From assembly GCA_030390025.1 (NCBI GenBank), contig CM059432.1, positions 71,488,001 to 71,548,000 on the forward strand: 60,000 nucleotides of DNA, read 5' to 3'. The stretch is from Squalus acanthias. Lineage: Eukaryota. The translations under genes and the position numbers were made by a program. Shown here one piece after another: positions 2,387 to 41,987 of this stretch (position 1 is the first letter of the stretch; each line of letters opens with the position of its first letter). The notes beneath the pieces are model-generated. The model did no database searches. It was not told where the DNA came from and worked only from the letters and a program-made list of their open reading frames with translations.

Positions 2387-4519
2387 ATGGGTGCTCTAGT
2401 TGTCATCCCCCTTGGCCTGCAGCATGACAGGGAGATGGAGCAGAGGCAGCGAAGAAGAGGACAAGCTGTTCTCAGAGGGAGGAGGAAGAGGGGAGAAGAG
2501 CTCTCAGCAGGAGGCCTTACCCACCTAGGGTCTTCTGAGAGCAATTCTCTTACCTCAGCCTGAGCCAAGGACAGTGTGTGAGGCATCTGTGCTTTATGCA
2601 GGAGGTGCTCACAGAACTCTGCCACCTCTTGCAACCAGACCTGCAGCCTCACACCAGGGCGATGACAGCGCTGCCCGTGGCTGTGAAGGTGATCATGGCC
2701 CTGAATTTCCTCACGTTGGGATCCTTCCAGGCTGGAGCAGGTGACATCTGGAACATCACACAGTTTGCCGTCCACTGCTACGTAAGAGGAGTGACAGAAG
2801 ATATTTATGCCAGGAGATGGGAATTCATTGTCTTCTCTTTGACCAGAGAGAAGCAGGTGGAGCATACAGGTGGCTTTGCCAGGATAGCAGGCTTCCCCAT
2901 GGTATAGGGAGCATTGACTGCACGCACGTGACTTAGTGGGCGCTGCATCTAAATTCTGAGATGCACAGCAACCGCATAGAAACATAGAAACATAGAAAAA
3001 TAGGAGCAGGAGTAGGCCATTCGGCCCTTCGAGCCTGCTCCGCCATTCAATATGATCATGGCTGATCTTCTATCTCAGTACCATATTCCCGCTCTCTCCC
3101 CATACCCCTTAATGCCTTTTGTGTCTAGAAATCTATCTATCTCCTTCTTAAATATATTCAGTGACTTGGCCTCCACAGCCTTCTGTGGTAGAGAATTCCA
3201 TAGGTTCACCACCCTCTGAGTGAAGAAATTTCTCCTCATCTCAGTCCTAAATGTCCTATCCCGTATCCTGAGACTGTGACCCCTCGTTCCAGACCCCCCA
3301 GCCAGGGGAAACATCCTCCCGGCATCCAGTCTGTCTAGCCCTGTCAGAATTTTATATGTTTCAATGAGATCCCCTCTCATTCTTTTAAACTCTAGTGAAT
3401 ACAGGCCTAGTCGACCCAATCTCTCCTCATACGACAGTCCAGCCATCCCAGGAATCAGTCTGGTGAACCTTCGCTGCACTCCCTCTATGGTAAGTATATC
3501 CTTTCTTAGGTAAGGAGACCAAAACTGCACACAGTACTCCAGGTATTGTCTCACCAAGGCCCTGTATAACTGTAGTAAGACATCCTTGCTCCTGTACGCA
3601 AATCCTCTTGCAATGAAGGCCAACAAACCATTTGCCTTCCTAACTGCTTGCTGCACCTGCATGTTTGCTTTCAGTGACTGGTGTACAAGGACACCCAGGT
3701 CCCTCTGTACATCAACATTTCCCAATCTATCACCATTTAAATAATACTCTGCCTTTCTGTTTTTCTTACCGAAGTGGATAACTTCACATTTATCCACGTT
3801 ATACTGCATCTGCCATGTATTTGCCCACTCACTCAACTTGTCTAAATCACCTCGAAGCCTCTTTGCATCCTCCTCACAACTCACAATCCCACCTAGTTTC
3901 GTGTTGTCAGCAAACTTCGTCAGCATAGTTTCCCACTCGCTGAATGTGCAGTTGTTGTGCAACCATGCTCAGCGCATTATGATGGTAAATGCCTGGTATC
4001 CTGGCAGCAGTCATGATGCTTTTATTCTGCACAAGTCCGCTGTTCCTGCAATCTTTGAGCCACCATGACAAATCAGAGGGTGGCAATTGGGTGACAAGGG
4101 CTATCCGATGACCACCTGGTTCATGACTCCACTCCGCAACCCAACCACACGTGGGAAGCATGCATACAATGAGAGAAATGCTCTCACAAACAATCTGATA
4201 GAGCAGACGTTTGGCATCCTTGAACAACGTCCACTGCCTGGACCACTCTGGAGGAGCCTTGCAGTAGTCACCAGAACGTGTCTCAAGATTCGTCATAGTC
4301 TGCTGCATGCTCCACAACCTCTCCATCATGAGGGCACAGCCCTTGCCACCAAGCATACGGCGACCAGCAGAGGAGGAGGATAGGAGGAGGAAGAGGAGGA
4401 GGAGGAAGCGGAAAAGGAGGAAGCAGAAGCGGAGGAAGAGGAAGGGGTGGAGGCAACCCAAACAGCCCCTTTCTGCTTGGGCTGTCCGTGATCGACTCAT
4501 CCGACTGTGGTACCAGTGA
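2387..4519 (+). pseudogene. HARBI1-like DDE transposase, disrupted by frameshifts, stops and a CR1 insertion
   Basis: Motifs LPVAVKV, FARIAGFPMV-GSIDCTHV, HSLNVQLLC, YPGSSHDAFIL, GDKGYP..W..TP, IEQTFGIL, MLHN, low-complexity GAG-repeat tail. Confidence 0.9.
2980..3922 (-). mobile_element. 5'-truncated CR1 LINE (RT C-terminal part)
   Basis: KFADNTKL...LEYCVQFWSP...RGDLIETYKIL, (CATAGAAA)n tail on the + strand, TSD GCATAG (2974-2979, 3923-3928). Confidence 0.93.
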
Positions 4520-4681
4520 ACGCAACCCCAATTCAACAATAGTCCCACACCTTACCTTCCCTCTGCTACTGACAATCACAGTATCCTCGTAGTCACAATG
4601 CTGTAATAAAAGCCACCACAAAAGAAACATTCCAATCCAACTTTATACATGAATCCATCCAATATTGCATAACAAAGTCAA

Positions 4682-6000
4682 CTAATCACCCTTGTACATT
4701 CCCTTAGTGCCTGTCTTCAGTGTGCCTTTGCCTGTCCTAGTGCTCGTATGAAGTGCTACCCCAGTGGCTGCAGCATGGCTGGTAGAAGGCTGTTGACTTT
4801 CAATGGGGGAGACTGCAGATGGCCTTGCAGGTCGACCTCGAGCAGCTCTGGGCCTAGAAGGCCTGGCTGCGGACTGCACCACCTCGGCATTGGCGGCAGC
4901 AGTCTGGGCTGGCTGGCTGACAGGCAACAGCACGGGCACTGGCGGAGTGGCAGTGATGGGAGGGCAAATGCTGTCATCCTGAGAGAGGACAACAGGTTTG
5001 TGCTCCACACAGCCAATACCACTCCTCCGGGGTGGCGCCTCAGCAACTTAGTCATCTGTTGGATGACAGATTGCTGGATAGCTGTGATACCCTGCAAGTC
5101 CCTTTCCACACTGGTAAATGCAGCCATGATGGCAGCAGTCTGAGCTTGCGTGGCAGCAAGCTGAGCCTGCATGACAGCAGTCTGAGCTTAGATGACAGAA
5201 GTCTGAGCTTCCACTGCAGCACACAGATGTTGGGTGGCTTCTGCTTGTGCTGCAATAGAAGCTGAGACATCAGCTGGAAAGGATGGTTCTGAGCTCTGTG
5301 CTCCTTGACATTGCACTCAGGCTTTCTGGCAAGCCTGCCAATGCACCAAGCATTTCATTGTGCATACCCATCAGCGTTCTTCTGTAGGCCATCCCATCGA
5401 AGTCTTCATCTGAGTCCTGTGCAGCAGAACTCATGTGTGACCTCACCCTCCAGAGAGCTGGCACCTGCGGTATCCTTTCCCCGTGCCCTGGCTACAGGCC
5501 ACTCGTGCCCAATGACTCATTATATGCAGATCCTGCCTCTAAGCTACCCTCTACAGTCCGCGCAGTGCCAGTATCTGAGTTGGTGGCTGAGTGTCAGATC
5601 GAGTGACGGTGTTTCTTCTTCATCACTCTGCTCCCTCTTGTTGTTGCATCACTGGCTGGGCAGGTTGAATTTCTTGGGTCTCTGAAATGAGAAGGACACA
5701 AGGGTAGGGTTGTGGTGATGGGAGGGGGGGAAAGCAAGAGGTGCATGCTTACACCATGTGCAGCTTGTAAATCAGAGAGATTGGGGGATGAGGGGTAAGT
5801 GGGCTGTGAGAAGGAGGATTACATATGAGGATACTAGCATCTAGTATTCTCTCAGCCCCGCCGCTGGCCATGGGCTCAGCCATGCCCCTCTCAAGAATGG
5901 CCAGCACCGTCTCCTCCATTGGGTTCATGTTATGCAGGCGCACCTGTCCCCTGCTGGTTAGTACCTGCTGGCACCGGTTGTAAGTCACATTTTCCTGCAA
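4682..6000 (-). pseudogene. Harbinger Myb-like partner gene, exons 2-3 (Ala/Gln-rich coiled-coil C-terminus), decayed
   Basis: Homologous to 53623-54930 and 31387-33290. Acceptor-like sites near 5995 and 5682. PMEETVL motif. Confidence 0.75.
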
Positions 6001-7459
6001 GAGAAAGGGAAGTGTGTCAGTGAGTGTGGTGCAATGTGTTTGGGTGATATGCCTGTCATTGGTTGAATAACTGACAGTTTGTGCAAGCTGTTAGATACGG
6101 GTATGAGGCTTGCACCAGTGCTAGATGTGTGAGGGTGAGGTGAAGCTATGAATGTGAGGCATGAGCTGTGTTTGGTAGAGATTGTTGGTAGGTGAGTGAT
6201 GGGGGTTTGGTGCATTCCTCTCTCCATTTTACACATCCCACAAATTACCATTCATATCTCATTCATGAGCCCTGGAGGAACTTTACTGTCCAGTACAATA
6301 TTTAAGATATAAAACATAGATCAAATGTTCTCACTTGGTCCAAGTTATTAACACTTTTTATTTATCATTATTTTAGAGGATCATTTATTTTCCCAAAAGT
6401 AACTCAATATATACTGCCTGAGTCCATTTTGTCATTTCAAAATTATCCCAAAATCCAAACCTGTTGGACTGACAGGTTTTGTCAATGTTCAATTTCATTT
6501 CTATCAATTTATCTTATCAATTTCAATTTCAGAAACAAGTGATTCCCAGGCTAGGTGGTTTACGCGGTGTTTTAACATTAGAGACAGAAGTGCAGCAATT
6601 AGTTTACAAGGTAACTTCCATATAACAAAAGAAAGAAGACAATCCATTGTGGCTCTGCTTAAGAGCCCAAGGGGTTAATTTATCAAATCATAATTTTCCT
6701 TCTGTCACTGTGGGGAAATATTAACTTAAAATTAAGAAACTTAAATTTAATAATATCCAATATCCTTAAATTTCATTCAGCAATACTAAAGTTGTTGCTT
6801 GGTGAACTTAAACAGCTGTCAATGGAAAAGGTTAACTCCTTTGCAGGTTTTTAAGAGGGCGGAGCGTAACATTGTCAGGCGCACGCAATTGTGTCACTTC
6901 ACGTAAATTTTAAAAAAACTTCCCCGATCGAAAAAAACAGTTGGGTTTTCACAATTTAATAGGTTAGTTACCTTTAATAATTCCAATTTAATTCAGATCA
7001 ATATTTTATTAACTAAACATGAACAGAACAGATAAAACAAAACAAAATAGCACATGCTTGCAAAAAACAGTAAATTACATCATATTTCTTATTGTCCTTT
7101 CTTCAGATGCCTTTCCAAATGACTGTAAAAACATTGAATATAACTGGAGAAAAATTCGTTTTTCACATTTAAACAAATCAAATCAAACTGCTTTGGAAAA
7201 TTTCACCATAGCAACCACAACTCCAAGGTTAAATCTTAGACTGAAACTTAATCTTTTGTTAAATAAACTTTTTGTTTTTCTCAGTTTTTCCACACCAGCT
7301 TAACTTAAATTGTAGATCAAAGTTTTTTTTTCCAATTCTGGGTGCACAATCTTATTCACACATTCTTAAAACTTCCAAAATCCAAGAGAAGACAAAAGGG
7401 TTAAACACTTTTTTTAACACAGAGAAGTGGGTGCAGCTAAAACACACACAATAGACATT

Positions 7460-8544: not shown

Positions 8545-8898
8545 TTATTTTTTTTCCTTCCTTTGCTGAGTTTTCAGATTGGTTAGCCTGCAACTTAGAT
8601 ATTTTTCCTTTTCTATCTCTCCTTCTCTTTCCTGCACTTTATGCTTCACCTCCTGGCTATGTTTCTCTCTTAACTCATTATATTGTTCTTTTAGCTCTTC
8701 TACCTCTTTACTTTGTTTCTTACAATACTCGTTAAGTTTTTTCTGATTCACGCATTCCTGAATAAAGTTTATCACTTCTTCAAAGGGGACCCGGTCTCCT
8801 TTGGTTAAACATTCTGTCAGTAATACCTGTACTTCCTCCGCACAGGCGCCTCTGTCTAACTTACTCTTATATGCGTTAACAAAACTTTTACTAGCCAT
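8545..8898 (-). pseudogene. Putative gag N-terminus (helical plus coiled-coil)
   Basis: 117-aa ORF MASKSFVNAYKSKL...EEVINFIQEC starts ~160 nt downstream of the PBS. No diagnostic motif recognised. Confidence 0.5.
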
Positions 8899-9055
8899 TT
8901 GGTGATTTTCCTAACAGACCTCTAACATCAATAACTATCAGCGCGCAATCCACGGGCACTCCCCATGAGGGGTTTATCCCTTCTCAAGTGCAACAGTTGA
9001 TCAGGCGGCTACTCTCAAGACTCGATCTATTACACAATACTAGCCACTTTGTCTT

Positions 9056-11161: not shown

Positions 11162-11734
11162 AATGTCACTGGACTATTCAATTATTGTTGGGATTATTGG
11201 CTAAATGACAGATGAGCCTGGAAAGCAAACACGCCAATTAGGGCTGGATTTTAACCTGGTGACGTGCTGGGAGCAGGAGGGGGAGGGGTCTGGTAGCAAG
11301 CGGTAAACCCGGAAGTAAGTACCGTGCATCTGCCAGTGGCTTTTAACCCAGCCACTGCATTACCACATCATTTCCGGGTTTCCTGACTAATTAGAGTAAG
11401 AAGGAGTTGGCAGAATGGAGTCCAGACGTTCAAAAGCTGTGCCTCATTTTTGTGCATTTTGGTGATGCCTGTATGTACTGCTGGGGCCTGTAAGGACCCG
11501 CAGGGAGATCAACTTGCCTACTGTAATAGAGCCACTTGGTGCACTACTGATGTATATAATAATAAAGCCATATGCAGTACAGTTCTTACCAGAAACCTGT
11601 TGTGCTGTTGTATATATATGCTGTGTCTCAAGATATCACAGAATTGGTGATAAGGGTGCGATTGCAGATTCACTAGCTGAAATTTTGTTGGAGGATAATC
11701 CTGACAACTGAAGGAGGAACTGTTAGAGGTTCTT

Positions 11735-14700
11735 TTTTTAAAATCCGTTTGTGGGATGTGGGCATCGCTGGCAAGGCCAGCATTTATTCCCCATCCCTAA
11801 TTGTCCTTGAGAAGGTGGTGGTGAACCGCCTTGAACCGCTGCAGTCTGTGAGGTGAAGGTACTCCCACAGTGCTATTAGGGAGGGAATTCCAGTATTTTG
11901 ACCCAGCGACGCTGAAGGATCGGCGATATACTTCAAAGTCAGGATGGTGATTGACTTGGAGGGGAACTTGGAGGTGGTGGTGTTCCCATGCACCTGCTGC
12001 CCTTGTCCTTCTAGGTGGAAGAGCTCACGGGTTTGGGAGGTGCTGCCGAAGAAGCCTTGGCAAGTTGCTGCAGTGCATCTTGTAGATGGTACACACTGCA
12101 GCCACGGTACGCCGGTGGTGGAGAGAGTGAATGTTTATGGTGGTGGATGGGGTGCCAATCAAGCGGGCTGCTTTGTCGTTATGCTGTCGAGCTTCTTGAG
12201 TGTTGTTGGAGCTGCACTCATCCAGGTAAGTGGAGAGTATTCCATCACACTCCTTACTTATACCTTGTAGATAGTGGAAAGGCTTTGGGGAGTCAGGAGG
12301 CAAGACACTCGCCGCAGAATACCCAGCCTCTGACCTGCTCTTGTTGCCACAGTATATATGTTGATGGTGGGGGATTTGGCGATGGTAATGCCGTTGAATG
12401 TCAAGGGGCGGTGGTTAGACTCTCGGTTGTTGGAGATAGTCATTGCCTGGCACTTCTGTGGCGCGAATGTTACCTGCCACTTATCAGCCCAAGCCTGAAT
12501 GTCATCCAGGTCTTGTTGCATGCGGGCATGGACTGCTTCATTATCTGAGGAGTTGTGAATGGTGCTGAACACTGTGCAGTCATCAGCAAACATTTCCACT
12601 TTTGGCCTTATATTGGAGGGAAGGTCATTGGTGAAGCAGCTGAAGATGGTTGGGCCTAGGACACTGCCCTGAGGAACTCCTGCAGCGATGTCTTGGGGCT
12701 GTGATGATTGACCGTCAACCACCACAACCATCTTCCTTTGTGCTAGGTATGACTCCAGCCAGTGGAGAGTTTTCCCCCCAATTCCCATTGACTTCAGTTT
12801 TACTAGGGCTCCTTGATGCCACACTCTGTCAAATGCTGCCTTGATGTCAAGGGCATTCACTCTCACCTCACCTCTGGAATTCAGCTCCTTTGTCCATGTT
12901 TGGACCAAGGCTGTAATGAGGTCTGGAGCCGAGTGGTCTTGGCGGGACCCAAACTGGGCATCAGTGAGCAGGTTTTTGGTGAGTAAGTGCCGCTTGGTAG
13001 CACTGTCGATGACTCCTTCCATCATTTTGCTGATGATTGAGAGTAGACTGATGGGGCGGTAATTGGCCGGGTTGGATTTGTCCTGCTTTTTGTGGACAGG
13101 ACATACCTAGGCAGTTTTCCACATTGTTGGATAGATGCTAGTGTTGTAGCTGTACTGGAACAGCTTGGCTAGAGGCGCGGCTAGTTCTGGAGCACAAGTC
13201 TTCAGCACAATAGCCGGGACCCATAGTCTTTGCTGTATCCAGTGCGCTCAGCCGTTTCTTGATATCACGTGGAGTGAATCGAATTGGCTGAAGACTGGCT
13301 TCTGTGATGGTGGGGACCTCAGGAGTAGCCCGATATGGATCATCCACTCGGCACTTCTGTCTGAAGATGGTTGCAAACGCTTCAGCTTTGTCTTTTGCAC
13401 TCACGTGCTGGGCTCCACCATCATTGAGGATGGGGATATTCATGGAGCCTTCTCCTCCCGTTAGTTGTTTCATGGTCCACCACCATTCACGACTGGATGT
13501 GGCAGGACTGCAGAGTTTTGATCTGATCCGTTGATTGTGGCATCGCTTAGCCCTGTCTATAGCATGCTGCTTCCGCTTTTTAGTATGCATGTAGTTCTGT
13601 GTTGCAGCTTCCCCAGGTTGGCACCTCATTTTTAGGTACGCCTGGTGCTGCTCCTGGCATGCTCTTCTACACTCGTTGTTGAACCAGGGTTGGTCCCCTG
13701 GCTTGATGGTAATGATATAGTAAGGGATATGCCGGGTCATGAGGTAACAGATTGTGGTGGAATACAATTCTGTTGCTGCTGATGGCCAACAGCGCCTCAT
13801 GGATGCCCAATTTTGAGCTGCTAGATCTGTTCTGAATCTATCCCATTTAGCGCAGTTGTAGTGCCACACAACCCGATGGAGGGTGTCCTCAGTGTGAAGA
13901 CGGGACTTCGTCTCCACAATGACTGTGCGGTGGTCACTGCTACCAATACTGTCATGGACAGATGCATCTGTGATAGGTAGATTGGTGAGGACGAGGTCAA
14001 GTAGGTTTTTCCATCGTGTTAGTTCTCTCACCACCTGTCGCAGGCGCACACTGGCAGTTATGTCCTTCAAGACTCGGCCAGTAGTGGTGCTACTGAGCCA
14101 CACTTGGTGATGGACAATGAAGTCCCCCACCCAGAGTACATTCTGCGCCCTTGCTACTCTCAGTGCTTCTTCCAAATGGTGTTCAACAAGAAGGAGTAAC
14201 GATTCAACAGCTAAGGGAGGGCGGTAGGTGGTAATCAGCAGGAGGTTTCCTTGCCCATGCTTGACCTGAAGCCATGAGACTTCATGGGGTCCAGAGTCAA
14301 TGTTGTGGACTCCCAGGGCCACTCCTTCCCGACTGTATACCACTGTGCCACCACCCCTGGTGGGTCTGTCCTGCCGGTGGGATAGGACATACCCAGCGAT
14401 GGTGATGAGGAGTTTGGGACATTGGCTGAAAGGTATGATTCTGTGAGTATGACTATGTCAGGCTGTTGCTTGACTAGTCTGTGGGACAGCTCTCCCAGTT
14501 TTGGCACAAGTCCCCAGATGTTGGTGAGGAGGACTTTGCAGGGTTGACTGGGCTGGGTGTGCCGTTGCCATGGCCGTAGCCGGTGCCGAGGTCGCATGGT
14601 CCGTCCGGTTTCATTCTTATTATTGTGTTTCGTAGCAGTTTGTTACAACTGCGTGGCTTGCTAGGCCATTTCAGAGGGCAGTTAAGAGTTAACCACATTG

Positions 14701-14963
14701 CTGTCGGTCTGGTGTCTCATATAGGCCAGGTAAGGACGGCAGATTTCCTTCCCTAAAGGACATTAATGAACCAGATGGGTTTTTACAACAATCCGATAGT
14801 TTCATCATGACCATTACTGATACTCATAATTATTCCAGATTTATTTAATTAACTGAATTTAAATTCCCCAGCTGCCATGGTGGGATTTGAACACACGTCT
14901 CTGGATCATTCGTCCAGTCCTCTGGATTACTAGCCCAGTGACATTACCACTACGCTACCGTGC
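11735..14963 (-). mobile_element. Apparently full-length compact CR1-group LINE with a tRNA-derived head and one APE+RT ORF (frameshifted)
   Basis: ORF pieces [57 protein letters not shown] boxes at the 5' end, A-rich tail, possible short TSD TCTT. Confidence 0.88.
14883..14963 (-). promoter_or_regulatory. tRNA-derived Pol III internal promoter (A and B boxes)
   Basis: Minus strand GGTAGCGTAGTGG (14959-14947) and GTTCAAATCC (14892-14883). Confidence 0.75.
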
Positions 14964-15045
14964 TCTTCGTTTTGCAGAAAAACTTAAAAATCCGAGGTAA
15001 ATTTCGCGCACATGTGGCTGAAGTGTCGACGTTGCCAGAGTCCAG

Positions 15046-15844: not shown

Positions 15845-16300
15845 ACCCATTGTTGTTGGGGAGTCCGTGTTCCATGTTTATACGGAATGTGAGAGGTTGC
15901 AGCCCCTCTTCCATTATTTTCAGGGGCTGCTCCTCGATTTTTGGCTGCACTTCAGTCCCACGCTCCTGATCTTATGTTCTTATGTTCTTATCTTTGGTCA
16001 CCTGGTGCGGAGGGGAGCTGGCAGATCAGGGGACCTCCTCGTGGGACTGCTCCTGGGCCTGGCCAAAGTGGCCATCAACTGGTCCAGGCAGCAGGCGGTC
16101 GAGGAGGATGTTCGGTCCGATTGCCTGCCTCTCTTCCATGGCCACGCTCGCGCCCAGGCGGCCCTGGAGATGGAGCACGCGGTGTCCTCCAGCACGCACA
16201 AGGCCTTCCGCGACCGGTGGGCACCGCAGGGACTGGAGTGCATCATCACCCCAGCCAACCAAATTTCAATTTAATTTGTTAAGTTTCATTTAATGTTTTA
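15845..16300 (+). mobile_element. Tx1/L1-clade LINE 3' fragment
   Basis: ESVFHVYTECERLQPLF...LLLGLAKVAI...AFRDRW (ORF2 C-terminal Zn-knuckle region). A related fragment lies at ~32428-32553. Confidence 0.75.
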
Positions 16301-16339
16301 AAAGTTACAGTCCATTTGTTTACGGGTTGCATCAAAAGA

Positions 16340-18890
16340 GTACACCCATTGTTGTTGTACCTAAGTCAGATGGTAAGGTAAGGTTGTGTGGTGATTATAA
16401 GGTAACCGTAAACCAGGTTCTAGAGTGTAATCTACCCAATACATTGCCAAATGTGGAAGATTTGTTCACAACGCTGACAGGTGGCCAGATCTTTTTGAAG
16501 TTAGATCTAACAAACGCCTACCTACAACTTGAGTTAGATGAAGAGTCCAAGTCATGCTTGACTATAAATACTCACCGAGGCCTATATCAGTTCAATAGGC
16601 TACCATTTGGAGTGTCTTCTGCCCCAGACATACTCCAGGGGGTGATGAACCAAATTTTGCAAGGGATTAAAGGGGTAGTGTGTTATTTAGATGACATACT
16701 CATTTCATAACCAAACAGGCAAATCCATGATGGGGTGTTGAATGAAGTGCTCAAACAGCTAGAGAAGCACAGAGTATGAGTGACAGCTCACAAGTGTGAG
16801 TTGTTTCAAAACTCAGTGGAGCACTTAGGGCACAGAGTATACAATGATGGTTTACATCCAACCAAGGGAAAGCTGGATGCAATCAGAAATGCACCCACTC
16901 CCAAGAATGTCTCTGAACTGCGATCATTTTTGGGTCTTTTGAATTATTATGGAACTTGGCTACATTGTTACAGCCACTGAATGAGCTGTTGAGAAAACAG
17001 ATCCCTTGGAAGTGGTCAAAAGAATGCGACACAGCATTCAAAGAGTGTAAAAGCCAGTTGGTAGAGAGTACCATGTTAGTTCACTACGATGTATCTAAGG
17101 AGATCAAGCTAGCATGTGACGCCTCTCCGTACGGAGTTGGGGCAGTGATCTCTCATGTACTAGATAGTGGGGAGGAGAGATCAATTGCTTTTGCTTCATG
17201 CACTCTCAGTGCCAGTGAGCGGAATTATGCACAGATCGAAAGAGAAGCTTTGTCATTGATTTTTGGGGTCAAGAAGTTTCACAAATACTTGTTTGGTCGT
17301 AAGTTTACCATAGTTACTGACCATAAGCCCCTGAAAGCAATCTTCCATTCAAAGTCCCCAGTTCCAACATTAGCTGCAGCCCGAAGGCAAAGATGGGCTT
17401 TGATTTTGTCAGCGTATACGTATGACATTGAGTGCAGACAATCAGCTGACCACAGTCATGCTGATGCTATGTCCAGGTTGCCATCCCCATCACAAGTTAC
17501 ACCCAATAAGGAAGAAGAGTTCTATTTCTCATACATTGATGAGCTGCCAGTCACAGCTGAAGAGATTGGTAGGGCAACCAAACGTGACCCAATTATGTCA
17601 AAGGTGTATGATTACTTTGCAAAAGAATGGCCAAACCAGGTATCAGAGGAAGAGATCCATCCATACTTCATTCGTAGGAATGAATTGTCAGTGGATAAAG
17701 ATTGTATCATGTGGGGAGCAAGAGTGGTTATCCCAAATAGGTTCAGGTCTAAATTGTTAGGAGATCTTCATGACCAGCACTTGGGAATGTGCTTGACCAA
17801 GAGCTTTGCACGCAGTTACTTATGGTGGCCAAGTTTAGATAAAGAGATAGAGTACATAGTCAGTCAGTGTACAACATGCCAATCGGTGAGCAAGAAACCA
17901 CCATTATTACCATTACAGCCATGGAAATGGCCTCCCAGAGTGTGGCAAAGGTTACATGTAGATTTTGCTGAGTTAGAAGGACAGCAATTGTTCATAGTGA
18001 TAGTCATTCCAAGTGGGTAGAGGTGTTTCCGATGCGGATAATAACAACAAGCAAAACACTAGACAATTTGCGAAGATTGTTTTCTTCATATGGCCTCCCA
18101 GAAGAAATTGTGTCTGATAATGGGCCACAATTTTGTTCAGAAGAGTTTACAAAGTTCATGAGCAGAAAAGGTGTGAAACTTTCCAAAGTTCCACCATACC
18201 ACCCTGCTTCAAATGGTGCAGCAGAGTGCACAGTGCAAATTGTCAAACGTGCCCTCATCAAGCAAATGTTGGATCCAAATCCAAAGAAACGCCTGTTGTC
18301 ATTGGACCACAAACTGGCAAATTTTCTGATTACCTATCGGAATACTCCTCAAACCAGCAGAGTTGTTTCTCAAATGACAGCCACGAACCAGGTTCTTGTT
18401 GTTAAAGCCAAACTTGGCAGAGTCCGTAGAAGAAAAACAATCAAGGCAGAAAGAGAGTCATGATAAAGGTAGAGTTAGAGAGAGAAGTGTGAAGTTGAAC
18501 CAGAAGGTTAGAGTGAAGAACCATCACCATAAATGGTTAAAGTGGTTACCAGGAAGAGTAGTGAAGATATGTGGCCCTCGCACATATTTGTTCAAGATGT
18601 TTGATCATGGAAAGGTTAGGTTTGTTCACATTGATCATATCTTACCTACAGATGTGCTAGGAGTTAAAAGCTGGGATGATTTAATTTATTCTGATGAGTC
18701 AGATAGTCATGTTACAAGTAGAGTACCAGTAGCAAATCCTACATCAGATGTACCAGAAACAAGTCCAAGACAAAGTCAGAATTTAAGTCTGAGCCCGAGT
18801 CAGGCAGATAAACAGTCTGAAAGTGTAGCGAGTCCAAATGTAGATCAAGGTCAGCCCTTGGAGAAAAATTCACCCGCAGGCTCAGCCTAG
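16340..18890 (+). pseudogene. Gypsy pol (RT, RNase H, integrase), frameshifted
   Basis: PIVVVPK..RLCGDYK, RLPFGV, YLDDILI, LACDASPYGVG, TDHKPL, H..H...C..C, IVSDNGPQF, PYHPASNGAAE. Confidence 0.95.
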
Positions 18891-21786
18891 AATGAGTCAA
18901 AGTCCGACAACAAGATCTGAAAGTTCTGTTGAAGAAAGAAGGTAACCTCTTCAAAGCAGAAAACCAGTGGTTAAGTTTAATCTGTAAAAATGGAAAATAA
19001 GTTCATATCTTTTATTTGTGTTACAGAATTCTATAGTAGAATTTGGAAACATAAAATGGGTTCCATTTGAGAAATGTATACCAAGAGTTGTATATACCAT
19101 GCAAGTCATGCACAATGATTATTTGCTATGATTAACTTATTCAATAAGGAGGGAGAAGTGTAATAGAGCCATCTGGTGGACTACTGATGTATATAATAAA
19201 GCCATGTACAGTACAGTTCTTACTGGAAGTCATGTTGTGCTGTTGTATATATATGCTATGTCTCAAGATATCATACCTACTGATGGGAGGAAGAAGCCTG
19301 CAGGTGTGGCTGGAGGGTGCCCATGAGGTTGGCAGAAGGAGCATGGTGCCACACTTGTGGATTCAATGCCAAAAGTGATTTAATGACCTAAGCAGGGCTG
19401 GAAAGGTGCGTACAGTGGCACATTCAACTATATCCTGATGTGCGTATCACCCCAACCCCCTCACTCTGCCTTCTCAAGCCTACTCCACACATCAATCTTC
19501 ACATCAACTCAGCCATCCCTCTCTGTCTATGCATTTCCACACATCTTCATCTGCCCATCCATCACTGACACTCACCCTCATCCTTATGCAATGCCATGCC
19601 TCTCTCCCATAGTCACCCTCAACAAATGCTCCCCATCCATCTGTTCAACACATGCCATTACTCTCACTTATAGGTCTCTTCTTTCCCTCCATGCAAGAGA
19701 AGAAAGTGCAGAACACGAGGGAGAGGCAGAGAACCAGAGGTGGCCCTCCACCATCTCGCAACTGACAGTTACAGAGGAGGAGGAACTGGACATCAGTGGA
19801 GTCTTGGCGTGCCTGACCATCAGAGACAGGGAGATGGTGGCCTCCCAGCTACCTGGTGACATCATGTTGATTTCAGCAGTGAGTGAAATATGATCATGCA
19901 CATAATGATCACTTAAAACATTCTTACATTTGGCAGTTCTAATTCATGTCTTTAATCTCTCAAGGGTCTTCAAGCGTCCCGCAGGAGGTGGTTCAGGAGA
20001 ATGACAACGATTCCTCAGAGGAGGCTGCTCCCTCGGAGGGTGCACCATCACAGGACACATGCAGACCATGCACTAGCTCAGATATTCACACTTCGTTGGG
20101 ACCGGTAAGGCAGATAGTTGGATTTTAATCTGGTGACTCACATACCATAAGTGAGCAAGAGCAGATGGTGGAGACAGGGACAGCTGTGGAGAGTCCACGT
20201 CGGAGGTTGCAGGACGCTCCAAGCTCTGCTCAGCTGGACGCAGATGCTGTACCTCGGGGGCCGTCGATGAACAGGATACGTCTGGAGCAGCAGCAAAGAA
20301 TGTGCGATGTACTGGCGAGCGTGCCAGCCGCACTGTGCAAGCTTGCAGAGAGATTGGAGGAGTCCGTCTCAAGCATGAGTGGCATGATATCACTGGCCTT
20401 TTTGTTAGCCTAGACAGTGATGGTCCACAGGCTATTTGACCATGGGGAGTATCACAGGTGAGCCTTATCCTCTCATCACCTGGCATCCAAGAATTTTCCA
20501 GTAGGAGTCATTGGATGGCTATCTAAAGTTGGAACTGTGGTAAATACAAATACTGTAATAAATCAATTCATAACAATCTTTATTTATTTTAAATATCTTT
20601 CCATCAGAAACATCTGAGTAAAGTCTAAAAATGTAACAGGAGCACTGGTAGAATTTTCTCTACTCTTGCACAGTTACAGTGTCACCCTGCTGAAATCAGC
20701 TAACTAGGATTGAAGCTAAAGTTTTCCTAATCCATGTGGCTCGGTTCTGAGGAGCTCCAAAGCTATTTTTCATTTGACATTTGTATGACATTTGCCTTTG
20801 AGCCGAGGGCACTTCTGTTGTGCTGTGTTCTTCTGCTGACCACTGGGATGTAATTGTGCGGTGAAATACCAGCATACGTTATTAGTATATTGATACTGTC
20901 CAACAGCCACTGTTGCATTGAGCGCACAGTTTTTTTTTTGACTTGCAGTGATTTCACAATTAAACCTTATGAACATTTTCTTATTTTAGTTTTGACCTGA
21001 AAAACATTTTGTTTGATCGCAGCTGATTTCAAAGTCAAAATAAAAATAAAATCGCCAAAATGAGATTGCCTATTTATGTACTGGGTCAAAGGTATTAACA
21101 AAACACAATAACCCGCTTTACACAAAGTGTATACATTTCAAGTTAGATTTTATTCAGATTCAGCTCAGCAACATTAAAAATGCAGCAGCTTACAGTTAAC
21201 AATATATATGAAATAGGAAGCATTTACAGAACATCTATTAATGATATATATCTCCCAATAAGGTAGTATTTTGCATCCAATATATAAAATGCATATTCTC
21301 TACACTGTGCCCATTAATGAGTGCATAGAATACAGAATAGAATTTTTGGCCCTGGCCTAATCTTACGGTTCAACTACCCCCGCCACATCATACTGTCTAA
21401 AATAAACCCTACTTACAATTGAAAGCTTCTGCCAAGTAAAACATTTTTTGTAAATTTCAGTTGACCATTGCAATTGCACTTTGTGTTACAGTTTTCAGTT
21501 ACTACTGTGGTAAAAATGGTCAAATCTAAAATTGCAAGATCTTATCAAAAAATGGTAGCTTGTATGGTACTTAAAAGGTTATTGCACCAACATGTGCTTT
21601 GTGTGTTTTGTACTGTGTACTGGTCTGAGAGTTTGTGCCTGCACATTTCCTAAGGAACCTCTAATACCTAATGCTTTATATGCATGTTTCTATGACTGTT
21701 AACCCTGTGAGATGAAAGTGTTGACAAGTTTAGTTATTGTAAATGGATTAAAATGGTAAACAGGCAAGTATTTGTCTAAACATATA

Positions 21787-22679
21787 GGGGGGAAAATTCA
21801 GTTGGTTGCGCCTCCCGTTAGCGCCTTAAGAGGGCGCTAATGGGGCGCAAAGCATCTAGCGCCCAGGCGCGGCGAAGTTTGCACCGCTCGCGAAATTAAC
21901 TAGACATTTTGCGGCGGCGCTAAACACTACCGCCACGATCTCCTGCGCCGGCAGATCATGACGTCACTCGAGTGCGCAACGCCCCGGTATCGCCCCGGAG
22001 CGGATATTGAGTGGCGCCCCCTGCCTTACCGCCTGACGCTAGCAACGACAGGTTGAGGGGAGCGTTCTGCAGTCATGAAGGGAAAGGGGGAGCGCTATTT
22101 AAAGGTGACCGCTTCCTGCCTTTTATTGTTGGTGCCATTTTTGAACTACGCATTCTGAGAGAGAGATGGAGAGACTTCTGGAGAGATTCAACGTTGTGTG
22201 AAGGAGTTTTGGGTACTGAGCAGCACTTTGCAGGTTAATTTTGATTTGCCATTCCTTGTATCGATTTAGCAGAGACTGTGGGGGCTGCACTCTGAGCTCT
22301 TTGCCTGGTACTCTCCATTGTTCTTTCCAGCACATTTGATGTGCAGGTCTCTCCAGGCCGAGATTCAAGGCTGCAATGAGCAGGATGTGGATGGAAAGCA
22401 AGATTAACCATCCCCTTTAAGAACTGGCCCGTGCCATTGTGTATGTGTTCCATTGCTGACTGACATTACATGAGCTTCGCCAGCGCTCTGAGGTAGCGCC
22501 TCGCTCCTCGGCCTTTGCGCCTTAAGACAGGTGTGAAGCGCCTGATATAGCGCTGCAATCACCTCCAGGGGCGATAAAAGTCAAGTTTGCAGTCGGTGGC
22601 GATAATTAGCGCCAGGCGCTAATCTTTGCGCCCGGCCGATAATTGCGCTCCAAATGGGGCGATACTGAATTTCTCCCCC
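21787..22679 (+). mobile_element. Non-autonomous Harbinger element (893-bp family, copy 2, divergent arms)
   Basis: TIR GGGGGGAAAATTCAG / CTGAATTTCTCCCCC, TSD ATA. Confidence 0.92.
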
Positions 22680-22733
22680 ATAGATACTCCTTTAACGATA
22701 AAGGTGACATGAATGTTATATACAGATAAATAC

Positions 22734-23759
22734 AGGAGCCCTAGTAAGCCTGAATTCAATGGGGATCGGGGGAAAACGCTCCACTGGCTGGAGTCATACC
22801 TAGTGCAAAGGCAGATTGTTGCAGTCGTTGGATGCCATTCATCTCAGCCCCAGGACATTGCTACAGGAGATCCTCAGGCAGGTACCTAGGCCCAACTGTC
22901 TTCAACTGCTTCATCAATGATCTTCCCTCCATTATAAGGTCAGAAAATGATTGCACAGTGTTCAGCTCCATTTGAAATTCCTCAGATACTGAAGCAGTCT
23001 GTGCCCTCATGCAACAAGACCTGGATAGCATCCAGGCTTGGGCTGATAGGTGGCAAGTAACATTCGTACCACACTAGTGTCAGATAATGGTCATCTCTCA
23101 CAAGAGAGAGTATTCTACCACCCCTTGACATTCAATGGCATTACAATTGCCAAGTCCCCCACTATCGACATCCTGGGGTCACCATTGACCAGAAATTGAA
23201 CTGGACCAGCCACATAAATGCCATGGCTACTAGAGCAGGTCAGAGGCTGGGTATTCTGCGGCAAGTGGCTCTCCTCCTGTCTCCCTTAAGCCTCTCTACC
23301 ACCTACAAGGCACAAGTCAGGAGTGTGATGGAATACTCTCCACTTGCTTGGATGGGTGCAGCTCCAACAACACTCAAGAAACTTGACACTATCCAGGACA
23401 AAGCAGTCCACTTGATCAGCACCCATCCATTGGTTTAAACATCCACTCCCTCCCCCATTGGCGTACCATGACTGCAGTGTGTACTATCTACAGGATCCAT
23501 TGCAGCAACTTGCCAAGGCTTCTTCAGCAGCACCTCCAAAACCTGCAACCTCCACCAGTTATAAGGGCAGCAGGTGCATGGCAATAACATCACCACCAAG
23601 TTCCCCTCCATGTCACACACCATCCTGACTTGGACATATATCGCCATTCCTTCATTGTCGCTGGTTCAAAATCCCTACCTAACAGCATTGTGGGACTAGG
23701 GATGGGCAATAAATGCCGACCTTACCAGCACTTGCACAACCTGAGAATGATAAAAAAAA
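22734..23759 (+). mobile_element. 5'-truncated copy of the 11735-14963 LINE family
   Basis: Collinear with the RT C-terminus (ATRAGQRLGILR, YKAQVRSVMEYSPLAW) and the 3' end GATGGGCAATAAATGC...A-tail. Confidence 0.88.
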
Positions 23760-28730: not shown

Positions 28731-28861
28731 AATAAGAGGCAGAAAGGCATATTAATACAATCAGAAAAAGGGGAAGGGAACAAATATATATAATAAACAT
28801 AGAGAGGAAAGATGTAACAGATCATCTCAGTCAAGTAATGGACAGAGCATTAAAACATTAA

Positions 28862-29754
28862 GGGGTAGAAATTAGGTCGCGCCCCATTTGGGGCGCAAAT
28901 ATCGTCCGGACGCAAATATTAGCGCCTGGCGCTAATTATCGGCACTGACGGGAAACTTCACTTTTACCGCCCCAGGAGGTGAGTGGAGCGCTAAAGCAGG
29001 CGCTGCACACCTCTCTTAAGGCGCAAAGGCCGAGCAGTGAGGCACTAACTCGGAGCGCTGGCGAAGCTCATGTAATGTCAGTCAGCAATGGAACACACAC
29101 ACAATGGCACGGGCCAGTTCTTAAAGGGGATGGTTAATCTTGCTTTCCATCCACATCCTGTTCATTGCTGCCTTGAATCTCGGCCTGGAGAGACTTGCAC
29201 ATCAAATGTGCTGGAAAGAACAATGGAGAGCACCAGGCAAAGAGCTCAGAGTGCAGCTCCCACGGTCTCTGCTAAATCGATACAAGGAATGGCAAATCAA
29301 AATGAACCTGCAAAGTGCTGCTCAGTACCCAAAACTCCTTCACACAACGTTGAATCTCTCCAGAAGTCTCTCCCTCTCTCTCTCAGAATGCGTAGTTCAA
29401 AAATGCCACCAACAATAAAAGACAGGAAGAGGCCCCCTTTAAATAGTGCCACCCCCAGCCCCACAGCGATTGATAGCGTTCCAGTCTTCTGGTCGTTGGA
29501 AGCGCCAGGCGGTAAGGCAGGGGGCGCCACTCAATTTCCGCTACGGGGCGCCCCAAGGGCGTTGCACCATGGAATGATGTCACAATCTGCGCACGCAGGT
29601 GGTCGCAGCGGTAAGTTTTAGCGCCGCCGCACAATCTCAAGTTAAGTTCTCGAGCGGCGCAAACATCGCTGCGCCCGGGCGTTAGCGGCTTTGCGCCCCA
29701 TTAGCGCCCTCTTAAGGCGCTAACGGGTGGCGCAACCAAGTGAATTTTTACCCC
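28862..29754 (-). mobile_element. Non-autonomous Harbinger element (893-bp family, copy 3)
   Basis: Reverse complement of copy 1. TIR GGGGTAGAAATT / AATTTTTACCCC, TSD TAA (28859-28861, 29755-29757). Confidence 0.93.
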
Positions 29755-30199
29755 TAAAGAAATAATTAGACCTGCAAATTCCTAGTTCCCAAATGCATTG
29801 GTGTAAGTGTGGCAGAGTGGGACTTGTGTCTGTTGAAATTGGAGGAGGATGACCCCATCAAATATCTTGGGGTCAGTTAATTTCAACAATGCTGGTGGGA
29901 CAATGGTAAGAGTCCTGCCAGCAGGATACTCCTGGAGAGCCTGGGAAACTTGAGAAGGGGACAGAGCAAGAACACAACTTCTGTATTTAAAGAGGTCCAT
30001 GCACCCCATCTCCCCACCAGTGATACTTAAAGGGATCATGAAGTACTTACAGGTTAGTTGCTGGATTATTTCTTCTGACTGTTGGTGCAATTCTATATGT
30101 TTTTGGAGGCTTCCTATACTTGGCTAAAGTTTCAATAGTCTACAGGAAGTGGTCTGGCTGGTGCTGAAGTACATTTTTTAGTCATATAAAATATTGTGC

Positions 30200-33100
30200 T
30201 GAAAGAAGTTGCTTCCAGATATGGTGGCCTGGTTGGGCTTCCTCTGGGAATTGAACATGACTGGGAGAATGAAGAGAGGTCACATAGAGCAAGACAAGCT
30301 GCTAGAAGAAGGAGGAGGAGGAGGGGGAGAAGGGCACTCAGCAGGAGGCCATATCCATAAAGGGTCTTTAGGGAGAAATTCTCTTACCTTAACATCAGCG
30401 AGGACCAATGCATGTGACCTCTTCGCTTCACTAAAGAGGTCGTGAGTGAAATCTGCCAAATGCTGCAGTCACAACTGAAGCTTCAAAGCAGGGCAAGGAC
30501 AGCATTGCCTGTGACTGTCAAGGTGACTGTAGCTCTTAATGTTTATGCATCTGGTTCCTTTAGTAAACAGCTCACAGTCTGCAGTGCACTGCTGCATAAT
30601 GGAGGTAACTGAGGCTCTCTATACGAAGAGAAACACATTAATCTCATTCCCTCTTGCGAGAGACAAGCAGGAGGAGCCAGCATGAGGTTTTGCACTGATT
30701 GCAGGCTTCCTCATGGTGCAGGGTGCCATTGACTGCACACACATTGCCTTGCATGCTCCTCATCTGAACTCGGCCATTTTCATCAACCAAAAGTGATTCC
30801 ACTCCCTCAATGTGCAGCTGGTGTGTGACCACAGGCAGCGCAGCATGCAGGTAAATGCCCATTATCCTGGCAGCAGTCATGATTCTTTCATTCTGCGACA
30901 GTCCTCTGTTCCACCTGTATTTAAACCACCAAAGCAAGTCGAAGGCTGGCTGCTAGTCAACAAGGGTTATCCCCTCATGACATGGCTCATGACTCTGGTC
31001 AGGAACCCACGCACATGTGTGCAGCAGGCATACAATGAGAGCTATGCTGCTACAAGGAACATTATAGAGCACATCATTGGCATCCTCAAGCAATGCTGCC
31101 TGGACCGTCTTGGAGGAGCATTGCAGTACTCACCTGAGCAGGTAGCAAGATTTCAGAAAGTATGCTGCATGCTGCGCAACCTGGCTATTATGAGGGAACA
31201 GCCTTTGCCACCACCTATTAAGCGAGAAGCTGAGGAACAGGAGCACGAGGCGGAAGAGGAGGAAGTGGAGGAGAAGGAAGTGCAAGAGGAAGTGGAGAAG
31301 GAGGAAGAGGAAGGGAGGCTACAATATAGACAGCCTCTTTCTGCCCAGGCTCTACATGATCAGATTATTCATGAGCGATACCAGCAATCCTGTTGATCTG
31401 CTGGAGAACAGATTGATGAACTGCTGTGACGCCTTCGAAGCCCCTTTGAACAGTAGTATCCAGAGCCACAATGGCAGCAGTCTGAGCTTGCAAGGCAGCA
31501 GTCTGAGATGCCACTGCAGCACTCAGACTTTTGATGAAAGCTGCTTGTGCTGCAATAGAAGCTGTGACATCAGCCACCAGATGCTGCATCATGGTGGGTT
31601 CCACAGGTGTGCTGATTGAGGTGGACCACCAGTTCCATGTTGGAAAAGGTGGACTCCAAGCTCTGTGCATAGCTTTGTGCCAAGTTGGTGCTGGACTCCT
31701 CCATTCTACTTGACATTGAGCACAGGCTTTCTTGTAGGATTTCCAGTGCACCAAGCATTTGGTTGTGTACACCCATCAGTCTTCTTCTGTAGCTTGGGCC
31801 ATCAAAGTCCTCATCTGAGTCCACTGCAGCAGAAATAATGTGTGACTTCACCCTTCGGCGAGCAGGCATCTGCGCTATCCTTGCCCCCCCCACCCCCACC
31901 CTGGCTCCTGTGCACTTGTGCCCAGTTTCTCACCACATGCATATGCCCCCTCTATCCTAGCCTCTAAAATACATGCTGTGTCAATTTCAAGCTGGTGGCT
32001 GCGAGTGTAAGATCGAGTGACGGTGTCTCTTCATCATCACTGTCTTCTTCCTCTTCCTCCTCTAACTGGGAAGGTTCCAATTCTTGGCTATCTGAAATGA
32101 AAAAGGGACAAGGTTTGGGTTCTGATGAGGGGAGAGGAGAAAGTAAGAAGTGCCTGATTACAACATCTGTAGCTTGTGAGTCAAAAGAGATTCAGTAATG
32201 CCAACCCCACAGTCTCAAAACTCAAGAGACAAACTCTCAAGAATCAAGAGATTTGGTATATAAATCATGAGTTGCTATTTTTCAAACATAAACAAATAGA
32301 GATTGGCAGTTAGCTTATAAAACTCATTAATGGCTTATTTAATTTCTAACAGGTCAGTGCTCTATACAAAAACTATTACTGCACCTGAAAATGCTGTACA
32401 AAAAACCTTTAAAAAAAATCCTAGCTTGTCCGTGCCCAGGTGGCCTGGAGAAGGAGCATGTGGTGTCCGCCGGTACATTTGAGGCCTTTCGCGACCAGTG
32501 GGTACCGCAGGGACTGGCGTGTGTGCTGGACAAGGGTGATAATATTTCATTTTAAAAGTTTCCTTTTGTTTTAGTTCTTTATTAGTTGTGCCCCTATAAA
32601 AAAGGGGGCACTTTTGTTCGATGGGAAGACCCCAATGTCTCCTTATTGATTTATTAGAAAAAGCAACAAAAAAGATCTTATGCAACCTGCAGCTACAGTA
32701 ATGTATTTTGCATCCTGAGCATTGCATGTAGTGCATTGCCCCTTTAAGAATTGTCAAGTGGGGGGAGGAATCGAAACAAAGCCCGGTGGAGCTGGTCCCG
32801 CCTTCTTTTTGGGCAGCCATGTCTGATTGGTCAGCACAGACGTCAGTCGCGGCGTTATGGTACCCAGACGTCAACGACCTGCAAGCTTGTCTTCCGGTGA
32901 GGGAGCGAGGCTGCAGAGAAACGGACGCCATGTTTGATTGTGGAGTGTAATCTGCTGCCCGCCTTAAAAGCCCTGAGATTTGTGAGTTCTATTGTGAGAT
33001 CATGAGTGAGGCTTAATTTTACTTAGAAATCGCATCTCTCGTGATAAATTCGCGAGACTTGGCATGTCTGGAGATTGTGGGATGAGGGAGAAGTGGGATG

Positions 33101-34104
33101 GGAGAAGGAGGATTAGGTATGCAGATACCCTCATCAATGATCCCTCCAGCCCTGCCTGTGGCCACAGCTTCACCAATGCCACTTCCCATGATGGTCAGCA
33201 CTGTTTCCTCCATGGGAGTTAAAACATGCAGGCGTGCTTCTCCTCCTCCAGTTCTTTCCGGCTGCCTCTTGTTATGTCCCAGTTTCTCCGGCAAGGAAGA
33301 GGGAAATGCGTCAGTGAGTGTCCTGCAATATGTTTGGGTGATGTGGCTGTCATGGTAGAATAGCTGCCAGTGTGTGCAAGCTGTGAGATGTGGGTGTGAG
33401 GCTTGCAACAGTGCTAAGTGTGTGAGGGTGAGGTAAAGCATATGAATTGAAGAGTTGAGTACTGATTGATAGAGATTGTTGGTAGGTGGGTGATGGGGGT
33501 GTGGTGAATTGAGCAGTGGATGAGGCGAGTGGAGCAGTTGGTAGGAAATGCCTTTTGACGATTGAATTCACTCACCTCATGTCAGATCGTTAAGCTTCTT
33601 CTTGCACTGCATCCATGTTCTTGGAGCTACACTCCCGGCAATGACCTCCGCCTTTACTACTTCCCACTGACTCCTGAGCATATGTCTCGAAGGCCTCCTG
33701 TCCCCTTGCGGATACAAGTTGTCTCTTTTTCTCTCCATGTCTTGCACCAGTTTATTGTCAGAAAACCTTGGTGCACGCTCTCTCGCATGTTCAGCCATTC
33801 TTCAATCTTTCACAGCACAGAATCGCTTCACAAAGGACTCGCACCACTTCTTCCAGCCACAATGTACCTTCCCTTTAAGAGGTGCAGGCTACCTTTAAGT
33901 AGCGCTGGGCACTCGCGATATCGGGCCCCTGCTGATGCATGCAGCCAATGAACAGTGTGGGTAGCACTGGCTGCATGCAGCAGTCATGTCAAAAAGCAGG
34001 CAGCACCAATTTAACATGTTGCCTGCAACACAATGAACAGGTGCCAATTAACCGTGTACCGCGATCCCCATGCCTGGTTTTGGGGGTTATCCAATTTAAT
34101 CCCC
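30200..34104 (+). mobile_element. Decayed Harbinger: transposase ~30221-31385 (+), Myb-like gene ~33798-31387 (-), right TIR
   Basis: GAIDCTHI, VQLVCDH, YPGSSHDSFIL, acidic tail. MAEHARERAPRFSD...RTWMQCKKKLNDLT. End AATTTAATCCCC. Confidence 0.88.
32193..33070. mobile_element. Non-autonomous TIR element with a 6-bp TSD (hAT-like termini) containing a Tx1 fragment
   Basis: Ends CAGTAATGCCAA / TTGGCATGTCTG, TSD GAGATT (32187-32192, 33071-33076). Sits in a Harbinger intron that is uninterrupted in other copies. Confidence 0.75.
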
Positions 34105-35797: not shown

Positions 35798-35992
35798 TGT
35801 GAGAAGTCGCACAACACCAGGTTATAGTCCAACAGCTTTATTTGAAATCACAAGCTTTCGGAGCGCTGCTCCTTCGTCAGGTGAAGTGCGTCGAAAGCTT
35901 GTGATTTCAAATAAAGCTGTTGGACTATAACCTGGTGTTGTGCGACTTCTCACATTTGTCCACCCCAGTCCAACACCGGCATCTCCACATCA
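35798..35992. mobile_element. Miniature palindromic Penelope-like insert
   Basis: 63-bp perfect inverted arms (35798-35860, 35892-35954), 38-nt tail, 13-bp TSD TTAATTCCCTGTG (35789-35801, 35993-36005). Confidence 0.88.
35848..35884 (-). ncRNA. Minimal type I hammerhead ribozyme
   Basis: UCAC-CUGACGA-A-GGAGC-AGC-GCUCC-GAAA-GCUU-GUGA: conserved core, 5-bp stem II, 4-bp stem I, palindromic stem III. Confidence 0.85.
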
Positions 35993-38815: not shown

Positions 38816-39486
38816 CTGGGATATAACAAAACAAGTTTACTTTTGGAGATAACTGTAGAGGTAACAGAAAACGTTTTATGTTGGATAAATATTGGCCCAT
38901 ATATTCTGATCCCTATGGGTGTGTACGCGTTGTGTACACACCCGTAGGGACATCGGAAATGCCCGTTTCAGGCATGCGAAGCGCATGCACTGAAAACAGG
39001 CATTTCTGATCTGTCAAGAATGCTCTTGACAGATCGGACATCTGCCCTAAAGAAGGGCCTCTGTGGGCAGAGAGTTCCGCTTTCTGCAGATTCTCCGCCC
39101 GCAGAAAACCTTTAGAAATCTTACGCCTGGTAAAAGCAGTTGAAAAAAAGTAAAAAAAATATTTTTTTTTCACTCATTTATAATTTTAAAATAGTTTTTA
39201 AAAAGGTAAGTTTATTTTTAGCCCCGTAAAAAACTTTAATTACTTTTTCCAAAAAATTAAATTTTTGTTTCAAATATTTAATTTAATGTAATTTTAACTC
39301 ATTTTAAAAACGTGTTTTAGTGTCTTTTTGGGGTGATTTGATAGGTCTATCTGTCAAAAGTATGAAGGGAGATTCCCTTCTCCTATTACGATAGCAAAAT
39401 ACTGCAGATGCTGGAAATCCGAAATAACAACAGAAAACGCTGGAAAAACTCAGCAGGCCAGGCAGCATCCGTGGAGAGAGAAAGAG

Positions 39487-39523
39487 AGTTGACGTTTCAG
39501 GTCGATGACCTTTCATCAGAACT
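39487..39523 (-). ncRNA. Minimal type I hammerhead ribozyme (inverted-arm copy)
   Basis: Exact reverse complement of 41951-41987. Confidence 0.85.
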
Positions 39524-41950: not shown

Positions 41951-41987
41951 AGTTCTGATGAAAGGTCATCGACCTGAAACGTCAACT
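41951..41987 (+). ncRNA. Minimal type I hammerhead ribozyme in the PLE pLTR
   Basis: AGUU-CUGAUGA-A-AGGUC-AUC-GACCU-GAAAC-GUC-AACU. Predicted cleavage after GUC at 41983. Confidence 0.87.

Follow-up and report, generated by a model that had tools for sequence, protein, structure and literature searches.

The locus and its mobile elements

The window, that is, the whole 60,000-nucleotide stretch of Squalus acanthias DNA analyzed here, consists almost wholly of mobile DNA. Positions 11733..14965 on its minus strand contain a decayed full-length elasmobranch Zenon LINE of ~3.23 kb, which is 96% identical to the majority sequence of 25 copies. The element begins with a tRNA-derived head (14873..14965, minus strand), the 5' end of the family, with a Thr-AGT-like anticodon arm and a long extra arm. 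Both internal Pol III promoter boxes are present; the A box (14947..14957) has an intact consensus at 34 of 39 head-bearing loci and the B box (14884..14892) at 36 of the 39, and the distance from A to B box in the family majority is 54 nt. A preliminary description of this DNA had reported both boxes from the sequence; the B box was recovered at 14892-14884, and the A box at 14957-14947, the earlier interval of 14959-14947 having taken in two extra bases. In the window copy ARAGORN predicts a tRNA-Thr(AGT)-like gene (14873-14964), but it does so in only 4/39 other heads, and the Rfam tRNA score of the head is 17.7 bits against a cut-off of 29; the head is thus tRNA-derived rather than a tRNA. 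A stable cloverleaf or other strong 5' structure was sought in it and not found (z -0.9 and -0.25).

Directly behind the head lies an A/T-rich patch with an AATAAA (14840..14845), possibly the remnant of a SINE-type tail, followed by a conserved 5' body (14645..14839) that is common to the SINE-like forms described below. A short upstream ORF (14474..14614; 46 codons in the window copy, 48 in the majority) starts at a conserved AUG and overlaps the start of the endonuclease in a different frame. A single ORF (11797..14537) codes for an APE endonuclease and a reverse transcriptase, with Pfam matches to PF14529 and PF00078, respectively, and comprises 973 open codons in the majority. The window copy has this ORF in four pieces in alternating frames (14642-14406, 14427-13216, 13220-12171 and 12180-11800). 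The Asn codon of the endonuclease is at 14522, ~430 nt downstream of the head boxes, in agreement with an earlier estimate of ~420 nt. The 3' end consists of a stem-loop (11753..11797) with an AATAAA at 11788-11783, in a tail common to the SINE-like forms, a TTTT (11740..11743) that varies in length among copies, and a 7-nt oligo-A tail (11733..11739). All of these features are on the minus strand.

The preliminary description had remarked on the scarcity of TTTT in the sense strand, and its account of the runs held throughout. The sole run of four or more T between 14965 and 11730 is that at 11743-11740, and there are 17 runs of four or more A in the element. A second copy on the plus strand (22734..23759), which is older, 5'-truncated and 83% identical to the majority, likewise has no T4 and only two T3 runs. 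T4 is present in other elements of the window, with 10 runs in the CR1 at 55600-58700 and four in the Penelope-like ORF, and the flank immediately upstream of the Zenon element contains two T5 runs.

The Penelope-like element (39421-42053) has a pair of fully (100%) complementary 895-nt inverted arms along with a 497-codon GIY-YIG ORF, and it looks very young. Also present are three copies, 88–96% alike, of a ~900-nt GC-rich repeat (892-1797, 21785-22682 and 28851-29756) and four diverged copies of a DNA transposon (2490-6216, 30324-33509, 47052-48429 and 52419-55152) that we take to be Harbinger-like from its ORF motifs. Broken Gypsy-like pol pieces at 16294-18890 served as unaltered shuffle controls. 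A 121-codon open stretch on the minus strand (8545-8910) resembles a host exon with a coiled-coil end, and a near-perfect hairpin at 35798-35954 has 76-nt arms, 93% complementary, around a 5-nt loop.

A LINE family that begins with the head

A search of the 3.7-Gb assembly with the head plus its junction gave 41 matches from 7107 candidates, 40 of which were scored, and 39 other full matches were retrieved. Twenty-four of these 39 loci are near-complete elements, 3.13–3.44 kb long, that all start at a single point and finish in the same A-tailed end, with flanks that are unrelated; the remaining 15, which are truncated, interrupted, rearranged or have large deletions, were left out of the alignment. 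Copies are 95–97% identical to their majority. Since this set was chosen on the head, a second set was chosen on the endonuclease alone (the best 20 of 39 matches). The head is at the expected place in 16 of these 20 copies, the remaining four are cut in the same 5' region (majority positions 86, 199, 201 and 418), and neither an alternative 5' end nor an ORF1 was seen among the 20. Eighteen further loci were chosen on the head alone; 15 continue into the LINE, two jump to its 3' part and one stops. The head-to-LINE junction has 267 exact matches in the genome, and its control has none. This is a multi-copy, single-ORF LINE family with the tRNA head as its 5' end, and both sets of copies bear out the expectation that full-length copies consistently open with it.

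These counts bear on whether the window locus could be a SINE-LINE chimera that arose once or only rarely. In its favour, the genome has many SINE-like elements that carry this head, but the chimera is refuted by the 16 of 20 endonuclease-picked copies that share this one 5' end, by the 267 junctions, and by the same head in the published consensuses of five species; its probability is negligible.

The preliminary description also proposed to look for the head inside the target site duplications (TSDs) of full-length copies. No consistent TSDs were found in 24 copies: the longest word shared by the two flanks averages 5.0 nt, compared to 4.5 in mismatched pairs, and three of the 24 copies reach 7 nt, compared to 2.9% of mismatched pairs. 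A test of whether the head lies inside TSDs therefore cannot apply. In a search for an older subfamily, the best matches to the second copy (22734-23759) were 5'-truncated copies 93–97% identical to the majority. Relatives with DNA sequence outside the host genome amounted to one weak metagenome match, with none in viral or prokaryote collections. Two full-length copies (L050 and L052) sit in or beside an opposite-orientation copy of the same family. Three shark gene models, storkhead-box 1-like, SVEP1-like and LRRC32-like (P0121, P0123 and P0124), hold pieces 74–86% identical to the LINE protein; these represent either exonised fragments or errors of annotation, and they point to the family's presence in other shark orders.

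Identity with elasmobranch Zenon

Zenon LINEs have been reported in sharks, rays, coelacanth and hagfish (Stuart, Du, Hassan, Adelson 2026, PMC13343379), and their described traits include the lack of an ORF1 and a poly-A end. The present family shares both traits and has the endonuclease and reverse transcriptase in one 973-codon majority frame. It departs from canonical vertebrate CR1 in having no esterase ORF1 and in having an A tail, and its protein is ~28% identical to that of the CR1 in the window. Over the first 400 nt, the part of the published SquAca_Zenon-1 consensus that is visible, the family majority matches it by eye except at two short spots, and otherwise without sequence difference; the lengths are 3314 nt and ~3.31 kb, respectively, and both have an APE-RT, no ORF1 and a poly-A tail. 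To judge by sequence, the family is the already catalogued elasmobranch Zenon LINE. The earlier claim that there is no ORF1 stands, as only the 48-codon upstream frame is found in the ~450 nt before the endonuclease; its being unusual does not, since Zenon elements are known to lack ORF1.

The published consensuses extend the distribution of the head. By eye, it opens all seven Zenon consensuses of five shark and ray species in the supplement of PMC13343379; across them the A and B boxes are kept, the spacer between the boxes diverges, and the extra-arm hairpin has changed on both sides. Two B-box 10-mers match, in that supplement, elasmobranch Zenon rows only (3 + 3 matches). The head is absent from the two hagfish rows and one coelacanth row, the 5' ends of which may include flank, and T4 or longer runs occur in all three within the 400 nt visible (both by eye). 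The words 'tRNA' and 'polymerase' are absent from the main text of PMC13343379, as is 'tRNA' from its readable supplement, and the parts examined do not mention T avoidance, SINE-like derivatives or a missing AUG. Within the literature covered, to which Repbase, Dfam and most subscription papers do not belong, no Pol III-driven or tRNA-headed autonomous LINE was found. The tRNA head of elasmobranch Zenon is apparently deeply conserved and so far unremarked.

Avoidance of T-rich runs on the sense strand

The preliminary description proposed that the element is selected against Pol III terminators. The majority ORF contains no T4, compared to 3.0 expected from base shuffles (P 0.04) and 1.7–1.9 from codon-aware shuffles (P 0.11–0.16), and the depletion expected relative to codon-shuffled controls is thus not significant on its own. 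T3 occurs five times, compared to 11.2 expected from synonymous shuffles (P 0.005). A first-order Markov null absorbs both (T4, P 0.21; T3, P 0.13). At synonymous C/T sites, T is used in 41%, 28%, 12% and 0/2 of cases as the resulting T run lengthens, and this graded avoidance has an odds ratio of 0.25 with the next base allowed for (P 0.011); the L2-like control is also graded (P 0.049). For 5-mers with at least four T, which give the clearest signal but were the fourth or fifth statistic tried, the majority ORF contains one where 9.5 are expected, which was equalled by 21 of 5000 synonymous shuffles. Dense 5-mers of A, C and G are not depleted, and hence neither is antisense T, so that the effect is specific to sense-strand T, which argues against a DNA-level cause such as avoidance of an endonuclease site.

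The controls were 10 ORF pieces from the CR1, L2-like, Penelope-like, Gypsy-like and Harbinger-like elements. None falls below P 0.05 in the 5-mer test, and they contain 4–43 T-dense 5-mers per kb versus 0.3–1.5 in the family; each control is a short piece of one decayed copy and has lower power, and the test sequence is a majority. The same test on the two intact pieces of the window copy gives P 0.20 and 0.04, and the second copy (22734-23759) has two T-dense 5-mers where base shuffling predicts 12.3. Internal T4 is lacking in 18 of 25 copies, and the mean of 0.40 per copy agrees with what a T4-free master would give under neutral decay (0.53 simulated). Phe makes up 3.0% of residues, compared to 4.4% in aligned homologues; of the 109 distant homologues, 91 have a higher share. 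Since all copies belong to one lineage, these figures constitute a single evidential observation, and the T avoidance is real but moderate evidence. What stands of the proposed selection is a strand-specific avoidance of T-rich runs, seen in T3 and T-dense 5-mers; the absence of T4 by itself lies within chance under the codon-aware and Markov nulls.

These results also bear on a reading that takes the element for an ordinary Pol II LINE, driven by a body promoter or by host read-through. The head would then be a passenger retained by descent or a module of RNA structure, and the low T content would stem from base composition or from U-rich splice and poly(A) signals being avoided. LINEs are generally Pol II products (PMC5786205). 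Capped RNA would be easier to translate. The sense strand is only 19–20% T and under-uses TT, which accounts for the absence of T4 under the codon-aware and Markov nulls, and the L2-like control shows a similar trend. However, the A and B boxes have been retained in sharks and a ray alike despite divergence of the spacer, the depletion of T-dense windows exceeds what codon usage accounts for and is confined to the sense strand, and the other unspliced LINEs of the window are not T-poor by the 5-mer densities above. An AATAAA ~125 nt into the RNA would also be awkward for Pol II. We regard this reading as unlikely, yet as the foremost alternative to transcription of the element by Pol III.

The 3' end and SINE-like derivatives

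The terminal 96 nt have a stem-loop z of -2.6, and the AATAAA is 40 nt before the A tail. Runs of four or more T precede the tail in 5/24 full-length copies, most copies having only 1–3 T, and at ~5/58 distinct places among the tail-motif matches listed (by eye). This variability rules out the tail TTTT as a fixed family terminator. Loss by truncation of terminators in daughter copies and gain of T at worn A tails have both been described (PMC8466645), and the variable T run thus fits Pol III termination without proving it. The tail motif has 21,743 exact genome matches on one strand, a figure that pools LINEs and SINEs; overlaps inflate the count for the opposite strand.

SINEs had been suggested as internal-deletion products of the element, and head-body-tail forms were indeed found. 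A joint of 5' body to tail within 15–45 nt has 258 exact genome matches, compared to none for the control. Of these, 16 were retrieved, picked to span junction types, and 12 reach the start of the head; they are ~430–460 nt long, with 72–93% identity. The 12 forms plus two other loci contain nine different body-to-tail junctions, several of them at more than one locus. Some of the forms retain additional LINE sequence on either side, and at least these therefore arose from the LINE. The element itself has the tRNA-derived head with A and B boxes of a SINE2, but at 3.3 kb with a full ORF it is not short and non-coding, as its deletion forms are. A teleost SINE presumably has a body and tail similar to those of these forms.

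Contigs from sequencing runs contain the same structures. The joint 11832-14644 is present in contigs of all four runs (three presumed RNA, one of uncertain kind), and contigs of the four span the whole element; contigs cannot give strand, start or level. In the three presumed-RNA runs, summed contig depth over the last 550 nt (11793-12316) is much higher than in the rest of the element, and there are loose ends around 12177-12181. The excess is perhaps another short derivative, contig depth being a poor measure.

The LINE may have captured a SINE head, or the SINEs may have been shed by the LINE; a tree of SINE and LINE heads is mostly unresolved, with no starred branch. The shared 5' sequence would make a template switch of the head easy, in the reverse direction of the published route (PMC5786205). 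As for known SINEs, identity with SacSINE1/Deu was ruled out by a body unlike the printed Deu alignment (PMC7245038 Fig. S4, by eye), and three short Deu motifs are absent from the body on both strands. The printed Meta and UCON3 alignments are also unlike the family body by eye. Since the body is not a Deu domain, the SINE-like forms are not filed as SacSINE1.

Reading frame and translation

Catalytic motifs are intact in the family majority ORF. None of the 24 full-length copies has an intact ORF, the longest being 536 codons, and current activity of the family is therefore putative. The family majority has no in-frame AUG before the endonuclease, and the first in-frame Met of the APE-RT ORF is codon 287, far beyond the endonuclease start. 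The AUG at 14614 is conserved in 22 of 25 copies, and in 21 of 25 the 48-codon frame that it opens overlaps the endonuclease start one base off, a relation that is the same by eye in the stingray Zenon consensus. No canonical -1 slippery heptamer was found. In reporter assays, RNA made from Pol III promoters can be translated, and removal of TTTT approximately doubled the output of such reporters (PMC8223928). The need to translate an RNA that has neither a cap nor an in-frame AUG nonetheless counts against the best explanation.

This difficulty could be eased by split labour, in which Pol III makes the RNA that is copied and the protein is supplied in trans from capped Pol II read-through of other copies. 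Such an arrangement would explain the boxes and the T avoidance with no need to translate uncapped RNA; tens of thousands of genomic tails offer many sources of read-through, and the SINE-like forms show trans action. It leaves the missing in-frame AUG just as unexplained, however, and a 973-codon open ORF with intact motifs, in a lineage common to sharks and rays, is easier to account for by cis preference. We consider this arrangement improbable, and distinctly more so than the passenger head of a Pol II LINE.

A putative Pol III-transcribed LINE

From the conserved boxes and the strand-specific T avoidance, it is probable that tRNA-headed Zenon is transcribed by Pol III as a coding LINE. 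Under this explanation, the Zenon lineage would have taken on a tRNA-derived, SINE-type head before the split of sharks and rays and kept it since. TFIIIC would bind the internal A and B boxes, and Pol III would transcribe the whole 3.3 kb from the first G. T-rich runs would have been purged from the sense strand such that Pol III does not stop early, and the RNA would terminate in a T run that lies at the A tail or past it. The APE-RT protein would be made from this uncapped RNA without an in-frame AUG, through either a shift of frame after the conserved upstream AUG or non-AUG entry, and would bind the 3' stem-loop and A tail and copy the RNA by target-primed reverse transcription. Deletions that join head and body to the tail would yield SINE-like RNAs, which APE-RT would move in trans.

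Taken in full, the proposal is of a natural, long-lived autonomous retrotransposon that owes its 3.3-kb coding RNA to Pol III and a captured tRNA-type promoter. Its translation would need neither cap nor in-frame AUG, the avoidance of terminators would have shaped its codons and even its Phe content, and it would go on shedding SINEs by simple internal deletion, which would make it a missing link between LINEs and SINEs. For this combination we hold the chances to be evenly balanced.

As the field commonly divides them, LINEs are transcribed by Pol II and code for protein, SINEs are transcribed by Pol III and are non-coding, and Pol III is said to make no coding RNA in normal biology (PMC8223928). 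If the proposal is true, a head-driven shark LINE breaks both rules. First, it would provide a natural example of a Pol III RNA that is translated cap-independently. Second, it would allow the birth of a SINE in one step by deletion of the middle, the reverse of the published route in which a head is added to a deleted LINE. Should the Pol III part fail, a correction to annotation remains, as a family catalogued in 2026 carries an unremarked tRNA head and has SINE-like derivatives.

Comparison with known systems

The 3' end resembles that of B2, Dip and Ves, T+ SINEs in which an AATAAA and a variable T run precede the A tail and T runs lengthen at worn A tails (PMC8466645). T+ SINEs are, however, mammalian, non-coding and L1-driven, and the built-in terminator of the present family is only putative, as most copies have 1–3 T. 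The SINE-like forms resemble the DeuSINEs SacSINE1 and LmeSINE1 (PMC5499810) in having a tRNA head and a similar length of up to ~460 nt. They differ in a body without a Deu match; SacSINE1 is set apart by the printed Deu alignment and not by its own sequence.

Similar in architecture are Bov-tA from Bov-B, SINE2-1_ACar from Vingi-2_ACar, and CoeSINE4, each of which combines a tRNA head with 5' and 3' parts of a LINE, and which, like the present family, include internal-deletion derivatives (PMC5786205, PMC4494074). In these, a non-coding deletion product acquired the head, and Pol II is taken to transcribe the autonomous LINE, whereas here the coding element carries the head. Sources of ORF-free bipartite forms are given by Kojima 2018 as RTE, Ingi, Vingi and R2 only (PMC5786205); the family belongs to the CR1 group and is thus outside that list. 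Known tRNA-SINEs also borrow Zenon tails, but only 35–61 nt of them, whereas the present forms additionally share ~330 nt of the 5' end.
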